A DNA stretch of 46,666 bases from positions 1 through 46,666 of IMG/VR virus record IMGVR_UViG_2880395615_000009. One strand, 5' to 3'. The number at the start of each line of letters is the position of its first letter. Within the stretch, counting starts at the first letter, position 1. Below the pieces are notes generated by a model. That model was not told where the DNA came from. It saw only the letters and a program-made list of their open reading frames with translations, and did no database searches. Below are positions 40,995 to 41,600 of this stretch, in pieces. This stretch comes from a virus (Duplodnaviria > Heunggongvirae > Uroviricota > Caudoviricetes). The position numbers were made by a program, and so were the translations under genes.

Positions 40995-41017
40995 AACAAT
41001 CTGGATATCCATAACAG
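40995..41017. repeat. Left copy of an inverted repeat pair (AATCTGGATATCC core) flanking the gene at 41025..41516
   Basis: aacaatctggatatccataacag; 13-bp perfect match with the reverse complement of 41565..41577 and extended imperfect similarity. Confidence 0.6.
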
Positions 41018-41024
41018 TAAAAAT

Positions 41025-41516
41025 CTACAGATTGCCGTTCAGTTTTCTGGCCAACTCTTCAATAGATGGAGGTGATACGTAATCCGGATTTTTATTCATA
41101 AGAAACTGATTTTCACAGTACAGGCACCTGCTTTTATGAAAAAATTCATATTCTCTAACCGGGAATGGCTGAAGTATCGATACTATCTTTTGTCCAAAAC
41201 ATTTTGGACAAAGATGCATGATTATGCTGCCGCCGTTCACGGTTACCTCCTTCGAGTACACAAAAGTTCCCGACTCAAGTTGGCTAAGGATATAACCTTC
41301 CGTCTGAGCCTCAAAGTTTTCAAATTCTGCAATTTTAGCTTTGAGAGAAGCATTTATTTCTTGATAAGTGCCCACCAGCTCAACGAGAGACACGCATTCG
41401 CGCTGAATAGATGCAAGCTTTGAGTTCAGTTCACCAATAGCCGCATTTACTTCAGCTTGAGTTTTTGCCTCGTTCATTAGTTTTGCAATCTGGGCGGTTT
41501 CACGAATAGCCGTCAT
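41025..41516 (-). CDS. Hypothetical coiled-coil protein with C-terminal C4 zinc ribbon (CPKC...CLYC); start uncertain (ATG 41516 or GTG 41543)
   Basis: 164 aa; N-terminal heptad-rich helical region and C-terminal Cys pairs; oriented opposite to the surrounding pL-type operon. Confidence 0.5.
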   Translation of the reverse strand: MTAIRETAQIAKLMNEAKTQAEVNAAIGELNSKLASIQRECVSLVELVGTYQEINASLKAKIAEFENFEAQTEGYILSQLESGTFVYSKEVTVNGGSIIMHLCPKCFGQKIVSILQPFPVREYEFFHKSRCLYCENQFLMNKNPDYVSPPSIEELARKLNGNL

Positions 41517-41550
41517 TGCTGCCGTTAATTCAGCGATCACATTCAATACT

Positions 41551-41600
41551 CTTATTGTTGTTGGGGATATCCAGATTAACAAGATCCTTGTTGTTGGGGA
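41551..41600. repeat. Right copy of the inverted repeat pair, with an internal direct repeat TTGTTGTTGGGGA x2
   Basis: cttattgttgttggggatatccagattaacaagatccttgttgttgggga. Confidence 0.6.

Follow-up and report, generated by a model that had tools for sequence, protein, structure and literature searches.

A divergent Rip1-family gene of an Escherichia coli prophage lies in a mobile, repeat-armed cassette with an antisense boxA match

Among the abortive-infection systems expressed from prophages, Rip1 ('ring interacting pore 1') consists of a single protein (Patel et al., Nature 2026, doi 10.1038/s41586-025-10075-1, as summarised in PMC13434031). In a Pseudomonas aeruginosa prophage its gene sits between the terminase genes, and the protein, which alone is not toxic, is triggered by the portal of Pseudomonas phages and by the small terminase of Escherichia coli phages (PMC13434031; meeting report PMC12908700). 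Rip1 forms a 12-mer ring around the 11-mer ring of the small terminase (PMC13434031, PMC12908700); its amphipathic N-terminal part makes a membrane pore and its C-terminal half touches the phage ring (PMC13434031), and the outcome is a permeabilised cell that lyses prematurely, before progeny mature (PMC13434031, PMC12908700). We draw these details of the mechanism from the review PMC13434031, the meeting report PMC12908700 and the title of Protein Data Bank (PDB) entry 9oox. Here we analyse a gene of this family in a prophage recorded as IMG/VR IMGVR_UViG_2880395615_000009, a stretch of 46,666 nucleotides (nt) whose full length we call the window. The gene (41025..41540, minus strand; 171 aa from a GTG start) runs antisense within the DUF1391-dicB operon and is enclosed in a cassette with inverted-repeat arms and a match to the boxA antitermination signal.

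Other described systems share parts of this arrangement. HkaP of phages HK620 and HK630, a 'putative superinfection exclusion protein', belongs to PHROG 1244 and is likewise encoded antisense in the pL operon, but there N and nutL lie upstream and the gene has neither boxA nor a repeat scaffold around it. SieB (Rac, lambda, P22) is also a prophage-expressed exclusion or abortive-infection function, and Rac sieB occupies the same slot as the window gene, directly after the DUF1391 gene and antisense to the operon; SieB is, however, an unrelated membrane protein (PF14163), and no flanking repeats were found at Rac sieB. Tab (tail assembly blocker) of Pseudomonas phage JBD26 is another prophage-expressed defence against virion assembly proteins, but it is an unrelated 83-residue protein that blocks tail assembly and has a cognate anti-Tab. 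In lambdoid phages, the classical moron is a promoter–gene–terminator unit (Juhala et al. 2000; Cumby et al. 2012, PMC3594210). Finally, the gamma-proteobacterial boxA consensus is GYTCTTTAANA (Baniulyte et al. 2017); Nus factors bound to boxA shield long untranslated RNA, such as rRNA and the arrays of clustered regularly interspaced short palindromic repeats (CRISPR), from Rho (PMC7665894), and rrn Nus complexes have been described as RNA chaperones (PMC4807359).

Scans of the 171-aa protein against Pfam, NCBIfam and PADLOC (2023) returned only noise, and PHROGs placed it in family 1244, to which no function is assigned. By tblastn against phages, we recovered hkaP of HK620 and HK630, a gene of HK446 and genes of the Mu-like Pseudomonas phages DMS3, JBD30 and D3112, where the homologue is the reverse-oriented gene between the terminase subunits. 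A family profile matched the HK446 Rip1 chain 9oox_L at E=6.3e-24 over nearly the whole chain (residues 6–152 against 16–160), phmmer with the single sequence reached the same chain at E=3.6e-7, BLASTP aligned the protein with HK446_037 at 27% identity (E=5e-13) and hhalign against JBD30 gp30 gave a probability of 99.4%. Judged by its sequence, the window protein is a divergent Rip1-family member, homologous over essentially its full length and not merely alike in fold. An earlier note on this DNA, made from the letters alone, could assign the product no function, listed defence among its candidate roles and proposed sensitive protein searches. Those searches, by profile, phmmer, BLASTP and hhalign, lead to Rip1 (9oox); with the shared cysteines described below, they replace the supposed undescribed function by homology to a protein characterised in 2026, and that homology supports the defence role.

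Four cysteines, C111, C114, C139 and C142 (CxxC...CxxC), do not vary among 41 family members or in HK446, HK620 and JBD30, and Q46, L66, Y83, V94 and Y95 are likewise invariant across the window family and the relatives compared. From its conservation in every member examined, we infer that the CxxC...CxxC pattern is a defining mark of Rip1. An AlphaFold2 (AF2) model, with a predicted local distance difference test score (pLDDT) of 90.7, has helices at residues 2–24 and 28–79 and a beta-rich domain at 84–150. It thus has the long N-terminal helices (2–79) and C-terminal globular four-cysteine domain of the Rip1 fold, and together with the invariant cysteines it supports an extended helical N-terminus and a beta-rich CxxC...CxxC domain where the earlier note had read an N-terminal coiled coil and a C-terminal zinc ribbon from the sequence.

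With Rip1 of HK446 (PDB 9oox) and of the P. aeruginosa prophage, the window protein therefore shares near full-length homology, the same predicted fold and the four cysteines. Its gene, like theirs, is prophage-encoded and lies in a known moron or defence slot, oriented against its neighbours, an orientation found in the window and in relatives and assessed in 87 contexts. It differs in being 27–29% identical to them, in a C-terminal extension of about 20 residues, and in lying inside a repeat and boxA scaffold that is absent from HK446, HK620, HK630 and JBD30. Of 5426 complete E. coli genomes, 655 (~12%) carry the gene, among them the O157:H7 and O55:H7 lineages. The Gifsy defence protein GiPD474 was weighed as well and dropped as an ATPase-domain protein.

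RefSeq starts the gene at the GTG at 41540 (WP_000559928.1, annotated 'hypothetical protein'). The open reading frame (ORF) given earlier as 41025..41516 on the minus strand, with 164 aa, does exist, but from its ATG at 41516 it yields 163 aa. The GTG, giving 171 aa, is likely to be the true start because the residues MIAELSAAM upstream of the ATG are conserved in the family, as the RefSeq and family N-termini attest, and because AAGAG, a probable ribosome-binding site (RBS) read from the sequence (41549..41553, minus strand), lies 8 nt before the GTG. An equivalent purine-rich element comes after the arm in every cargo family of the cassette. Inside the gene, a perfect 11-nt palindrome (TTTGTCCAAAA/TTTTGGACAAA, 2-nt gap, 41189–41212) covers the codons of the first CxxC (CPKCFGQ) and is kept in homologues of 70–94% protein identity.

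The gene lies in a block of 661 bp (40988–41648) that is found in Enterobacterales prophages. In the sense of its cargo gene, the scaffold consists of a leader of ~70 nt, arm 1 (ending in CCCCAACAAC), a purine-rich RBS, the cargo, arm 2, GTTAAAGAGC and usually a terminator. The arms share a 13-bp core, AATCTGGATATCC, at 40998–41010, with its reverse complement at 41565–41577, as the earlier note had reported; the core has no other match in the window, where 0.09 matches would be expected, and a count of two was reached in 1 of 100 shuffles. The best flank-to-flank alignment is 19 nt long (40998–41016 with 41559–41577; z=6.4, 0 of 200 shuffles) and stretches to 26 nt at 81% complementarity. The arm on the 3′ side of the cargo (40998..41016, no strand assigned) begins 9 nt past the stop codon and shares bases with the 3′ end of boxA; in the arm on the 5′ side (41559..41577, likewise unstranded) the inner part, CCCCAACAAC, is copy A of a direct repeat. 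This repeat, TTGTTGTTGGGGA at 41555–41567 and 41588–41600, had also been seen before and is confirmed; in cargo sense it appears as two direct copies of TCCCCAACAACAA (41555..41600, minus strand), 33 nt apart from start to start, which are kept in all cassettes. Each arm holds the palindrome GGATATCC.

The same arms recur around related genes. A 19-nt consensus, AATCTGGATATCC(C/A)(C/T)AACA, flanks all the divergent Rip1-type homologues compared (z = 3–7.5), whose proteins are 59–70% identical; flank-to-flank alignment found no such arms at the HK620, HK446, HK630 and JBD30 genes or at Rac sieB. Scanning IMG/VR for the arm motif gave at least 120 loci, and the cassette counts that follow are among the matches listed. 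The inverted arm pair is present in 100 of these at least 120 loci, and the pairs enclose a Rip1 homologue in 50 cases, a phrog_6315 protein in 39 and a phrog_5286-type protein in 7. A boxA flanks 104 cassettes, with Rip1, phrog_6315 or phrog_5286 as cargo. The scaffold carries at least three unrelated cargo families between identical arms. The earlier note had named, as a result that would count against a cassette, the occurrence of the repeats at many other sites; the same pair does occur at many sites, but always paired around a cargo inside the conserved scaffold.

The two other cargo families have features of their own. The phrog_6315 proteins are ~150 aa long with two predicted transmembrane (TM) helices (for example in E. 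coli RM13745, L009 3196–3642, and at the 39 listed loci) and are weakly similar to SLATT/2TM effectors of defence-associated reverse transcriptase (DRT) systems and of the cyclic-oligonucleotide-based antiphage signalling system (CBASS; PADLOC E=0.002–0.01); these cassettes often hold a small extra ORF ahead of the phrog_6315 gene. Among the cassettes with phrog_5286 (~148 aa; IMG/VR contigs L027, L050 and L098), some include a convergent coiled-coil ORF of ~75 aa, phrog_1744, whose RBS and start codon lie just inside the boxA-side arm, which places both arms ahead of inward-facing genes. The phrog_5286/phrog_1744 pair may be a two-component, toxin/antidote-like cargo.

Comparison across backbones sets the limits of the moving unit. 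A prophage of unrelated type (IHE3034, phage PhiR49_1) carries the 661-bp block at 94% identity, placed between its repressor region and the yfdP-T operon. In a Salmonella prophage a block with the same limits follows cro, Citrobacter has one between xis and cI, and a further E. coli prophage has one in its DUF1391–dicB slot; the proteins encoded there are 59–70% identical. Four unrelated contexts agree exactly in the boundaries, and the Rip1-type gene is antisense to its neighbours in every block compared, as are the HK446, HK620 and HK630 homologues, which lie beside N and antisense to pL. The right boundary is formed by the conserved leader (41578..41648, minus strand), which is conserved across Enterobacterales; a megablast search with the leader alone in E. 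coli recovers essentially only Rip1-type cassettes and is not a measure of the total prevalence of the scaffold. In species-representative genomes, the exact boxA-plus-arm motif marks true cassettes in nine Enterobacterales genera, the named hosts being Citrobacter, Kosakonia (two species), Scandinavium, Buttiauxella, Edwardsiella, Sodalis, Symbiopectobacterium and Rahnella; matches to the motif outside Enterobacterales in these genomes had no partner arm. No 'empty' scaffolds were found among the single-arm matches, all of which were chance matches, truncations at contig ends or cases with a degenerate partner arm.

Within the Rac/Qin group, similarity to most prophages ends at the end of the DUF1391 gene, where the next gene is sieB, on the opposite strand, in Rac and another reverse-oriented gene in RM13745. 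K-12 Qin has no reverse gene, and ~32 nt stand in place of the window interval ~40985–41630. The earlier proposal of a self-contained cassette, or moron, inserted beside the immunity region is therefore borne out, being absent in K-12 Qin and present as a discrete block in unrelated backbones. Its companion, that the cassette replaces ydfB/ydfC, is not: K-12 ydfB/ydfC lie to the left of the insertion point, and another prophage locus (L017) has a 42-aa gene in the ydfB position together with the cassette, placing the insertion at an adjacent point. At the K-12 Qin site (L008 3160–3200), ~60 nt include AGTTTAC..GGATATTTCC, comparable with boxA plus arm, and AAAAGTCAGACCA, comparable with the leader end; on these likenesses, the stretch looks like a decayed remnant of both scaffold ends. 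In E. coli OkiPb01712 (L012 2975–3010), a deletion equivalent to window 40933–41503 has removed boxA, the 3′ arm and most of rip1; what remains is the initial 37 nt of the gene and the complete leader. The comparison with related prophages that the earlier note had suggested thus shows the cassette absent in K-12 Qin, deleted in OkiPb01712 and, in 103 of 104 listed cassettes, with its cargo in one orientation.

Like lambdoid morons, the window gene is an independent accessory gene, horizontally exchanged among phages, that stands between genes adjacent in relatives, here in K-12 Qin. It differs from them in its shared scaffold, with fixed repeat arms, an antisense boxA and several cargo families. 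We found no description of such a scaffold, nor any link between boxA and morons, in the searchable literature, and a boxA-carrying cargo scaffold appears not to have been described previously. The gene itself is a new, divergent member of a known family; the architecture of the cassette is the unexpected part.

The left boundary of the cassette is boxA (GCTCTTTAACAA, 40988..40999, plus strand, in the sense of the host operon), which is the sole match in the window. It is the complement of GTTAAAGAGC and the first arm bases, on the strand opposite the cargo, and its GCTCTTTAACA (40988–40998) matches the consensus GYTCTTTAANA perfectly, down to the critical C at position 4. Of the 104 listed cassettes, 100 have the consensus, always on the 3′ side of the cargo and always antisense to it, with a boxA score of 1–3 out of 10 on the other side. 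Of 100 consensus matches in 1.1 Mb of fetched viral DNA, 97 are joined to an arm, where chance would give about 4. Among 81 contexts that could be assessed, 77 have a boxA-side neighbour gene that points at the cassette in boxA sense, and both flanks are antisense to the cargo in 60 of 70.

This arrangement has precedents in the boxA antitermination of rrn, the suhB leader and CRISPR arrays (Baniulyte et al. 2017, Stringer et al. 2020), with which the cassette shares a perfect consensus match, a position at the start of a long untranslated stretch of transcript and, as in rrn, the order of hairpin then boxA. It appears to depart from them in that boxA is here part of a mobile cassette and would serve a transcript antisense to the cassette gene. 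On the consensus match, the orientation statistics and the rRNA and CRISPR precedents, we infer that boxA protects early-operon transcription from termination by Rho over the ~600 nt of untranslated antisense cargo. The phages without the scaffold fit this idea, in a small sample: in HK620, HK446 and HK630, rip1/hkaP lies just downstream of N in the pL operon, with an annotated nutL in HK620.

Taken together, the data lead us to a reading to which we give a probability of about 0.75, namely that a Rip1-family abortive-infection gene is carried in a mobile boxA cassette of ~660 bp, antisense within a dicB-type operon, and that boxA provides antitermination. Its homology suggests that the window protein uses the Rip1 mechanism. 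An invading phage that makes a ring-shaped small terminase or portal would then cause ~12 Rip1 monomers to gather round the ring; with their C-terminal halves on the ring, the N-terminal amphipathic helices would form a membrane pore, and the cell would be permeabilised before progeny mature. In the resident operon, RNA polymerase transcribing the early genes would meet boxA first and recruit NusB/NusE and other Nus factors, as in rrn operons and some CRISPR arrays. The Nus-modified polymerase would then cross the ~600 nt of antisense cargo without Rho-dependent termination, and dicB, exo, xis and int would still be expressed. The two arms would be sequence-conserved elements at the boundaries of the cargo, acting through RNA pairing, like the stem flanking 16S rRNA, or through protein binding.

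Several observations weigh against this reading. Identity to the characterised Rip1 proteins is low, as noted above (27–29%), and the subfamily is known here from sequence. The hydrophobic moment, 0.37–0.44 in 18-residue windows over residues 7–54, is moderate and not diagnostic of an amphipathic pore helix; its maximum in the N-terminal helices is 0.44. The resident prophage has its own small terminase (24445–24954) and portal and would have to escape its own Rip1 if the protein acts as predicted; we found no solved relative of the resident small terminase. A consensus scan, with inspection of the leader by eye, found no sigma-70 consensus promoter for the cargo. The proposed function of boxA is argued from a consensus match and orientation statistics. 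A nut site in these phages would take the same place, shortly after the early promoter or the first gene, and boxA could be read as the phage's own antitermination site; against this last objection, boxA moves with the cassette. Nor do 54 distinct arm pairs show any double compensatory changes, single-sided changes remaining uncompensated, which counts against RNA pairing as the role of the arms.

The latter point bears directly on a reading that would complement ours, in which pairing between the arms in RNA makes a long-range stem around the cargo, right after boxA in the operon transcript, and this stem excises or sequesters the antisense-cargo RNA. Equilibrium folding gives mean arm–arm pairing probabilities of 0.66–0.99 in both transcripts of 12 diverse cassettes, a calculation that leaves aside translation and co-transcriptional kinetics, and in operon sense boxA directly abuts the 5′ arm. 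A boxA followed by a long-range stem mirrors the layout of the rrn leader, where an RNase III processing stem flanks 16S rRNA. Set against this, beside the uncompensated changes, is the conservation of both arms as primary sequence, which is more typical of a protein-binding site, and we regard the stem as possible but with the odds against it. That same conservation could instead mean that the arms and the TCCCCAACAACAA direct repeats bind a host or phage regulator of the cargo, such as a DNA-looping repressor or a leader RNA-binding regulator. Arm and leader sequences are very strongly conserved from Escherichia to Edwardsiella, Sodalis and Rahnella, over which the cargo proteins are 43–66% identical; the palindrome GGATATCC lies within each arm, and the lack of a standard promoter in our scan suggests non-standard control. 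The cassette, however, brings no regulator gene with it, which would leave a conserved host protein as the factor; we recognised no known operator consensus in the arms, no candidate protein is known, and we consider this explanation rather doubtful. The remaining explanations fare worse. Inverted repeats of 13–19 bp around a single gene have the geometry typical of invertible segments, and the earlier note had raised a phase-variable switch that would flip the gene on and off by recombination between them. Yet the cargo has the same orientation relative to the asymmetric outer scaffold in 103 of 104 listed cassettes, the exception looking decayed; each match listed among the 68 E. coli genomes that cover at least 80% of a 1.6-kb query is a single colinear piece; and no invertase lies nearby, the sole recombinase in the window being the prophage integrase. 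To our knowledge, the arms are also unlike hix, gix or fim sites, and we set the switch aside as exceedingly improbable.

The presence of the module, intact, in unrelated backbones at varied positions (after cro, between xis and cI, after DUF1391) might also suggest that the repeats are terminal inverted repeats of a small non-autonomous element, like a miniature inverted-repeat transposable element (MITE), with a passenger gene. The arms are internal rather than terminal, because the moving unit extends beyond both of them, by at least 10 nt plus the terminator on the boxA side and by ~70 nt on the side of the leader. We saw neither a target-site duplication nor an associated transposase; insertion is always at early-operon positions of prophages, as expected for modular exchange by recombination between phages; and among the 104 listed cassettes there is no copy whose homology ends at the outer ends of the arms with a target duplication. 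We therefore hold a transposon-like origin very unlikely. The protein might, finally, be of another type that combines a coiled coil with a zinc finger, for example a DksA/TraR-like binder of the polymerase secondary channel or a SieB-like exclusion protein. It superficially recalls DksA, with its ~170-aa helical hairpin and C4 zinc site; its gene stands in the sieB slot of Rac, and the exclusion annotation of HK620 hkaP points the same way. The protein nonetheless has no Pfam match to zf-dskA_traR or SieB at E<=1 and no match to PHROG 6399, whereas Rac SieB itself matches PF14163 at 1.5e-31 and PHROG 6399; the C-terminal domain is beta-rich in the AF2 model, unlike DksA; and the full-length sequence homology is to Rip1. 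Such an assignment has very little to commend it.

The leader and the outer signals of the scaffold show further regularities. In the leader, the candidate helices GCCTG/CAGGC and CCAC/GTGG, which might form a pseudoknot, are 98% paired, with compensatory change in one lineage only. In all cassettes the leader has three GGA motifs (GGATCC, GGATTC and GGATATCC), and two C/A-rich repeats come shortly before the RBS; the complementary strand of these repeats reads as GU-rich UUGUUGGGG, recalling boxC. A hairpin read from the sequence, GCCGGA-N12-TCCGGC (40962..40985, plus strand), lies directly upstream of boxA in operon sense and is also present in K-12 after ydfC. In other cassettes, its position is taken by AAGCGTCC-NNNN-GGGCGC-T5+, a terminator hairpin; a run of at least five T within 45 nt after the cargo occurs in 69 of 103 listed cassettes, and the window hairpin has no U-tract.

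The window is identical in sequence to E. coli O55:H7 CB9615 (NC_013941.1, 1963152–2009817) and near-identical to O157:H7 strains, and comprises an almost complete lambda-like (lambdoid) prophage adjoining rspB. Genes for both terminase subunits, the portal, the head and the tail are all present. Also present are an IS256 with its transposase (372–1580), nleG7, a type III effector gene (1730–2380), the tail-tip gene gpJ, which is frameshifted (6094–9473), and hokD (34976–35131). The prophage may no longer be able to form infectious particles. Around the cassette, a LexA-family repressor gene (39776–40492) and the DUF1391/ydfA-like gene (40758–40910) on the plus strand precede the minus-strand Rip1-family gene, which is followed on the plus strand by a diverged element in the dicF position, dicB (42089–42277), DUF1482, exonuclease, xis and int. 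The placement given in the earlier note, between a ydfA-like gene and a dicF-like small RNA (sRNA), holds in so far as the gene is antisense to DUF1391 and dicB; the 'dicF-like' sRNA is a diverged positional variant without an Rfam match to DicF. Searched against Rfam at E<=1 over 3.1 kb and at E<=10 over 1 kb, the DNA gave neither a DicF match nor a family that would cover the scaffold. The variant, at 41846–41905 (plus strand), reads ACCTTTTGGCGGGTATCCGTTTTTTGTTTTCCCTTGTGATACCCGCCCTTTTT with a terminator; the 80 nt upstream of it are nearly identical to K-12, and the sRNA body differs. In the dicB leader, 41898–42121 (plus strand) has a sub-threshold match to the Salmonella sRNA STnc100 (34 bits against a gathering score of 47). 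A 28-nt block at 41922–41949 recurs at 96% identity ~36 nt beyond the cassette in the unrelated IHE3034/PhiR49_1 backbone, and a stretch related to this block precedes kilR in Rac.

More tentatively than the reading we prefer, and at rather less than even odds, the cassette may be a portable, 'antisense-tolerant' platform. A fixed leader and arms would hold a swappable defence cargo (Rip1, SLATT-like two-TM proteins or phrog_5286/phrog_1744), boxA would secure read-through, and an rrn-like arm stem would process the antisense RNA or sequester it, which might keep the defence silent while the prophage itself goes through its lytic cycle.

Recognition of a Rip1-type gene in this prophage means that a new defence mechanism, if it is conserved as homology suggests, reaches a large, divergent enterobacterial subfamily that PADLOC (2023), Pfam and NCBIfam miss, and it bears on the phage susceptibility of enterohaemorrhagic E. 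coli (EHEC). If boxA acts as we propose, it would explain how a backwards moron can sit inside an essential phage operon without polarity, and would show Nus/boxA antitermination as an integral part of a mobile cassette. The arms and leader, being fixed, would in turn offer a sequence handle for new small defence genes: anything found between the arms is a candidate.

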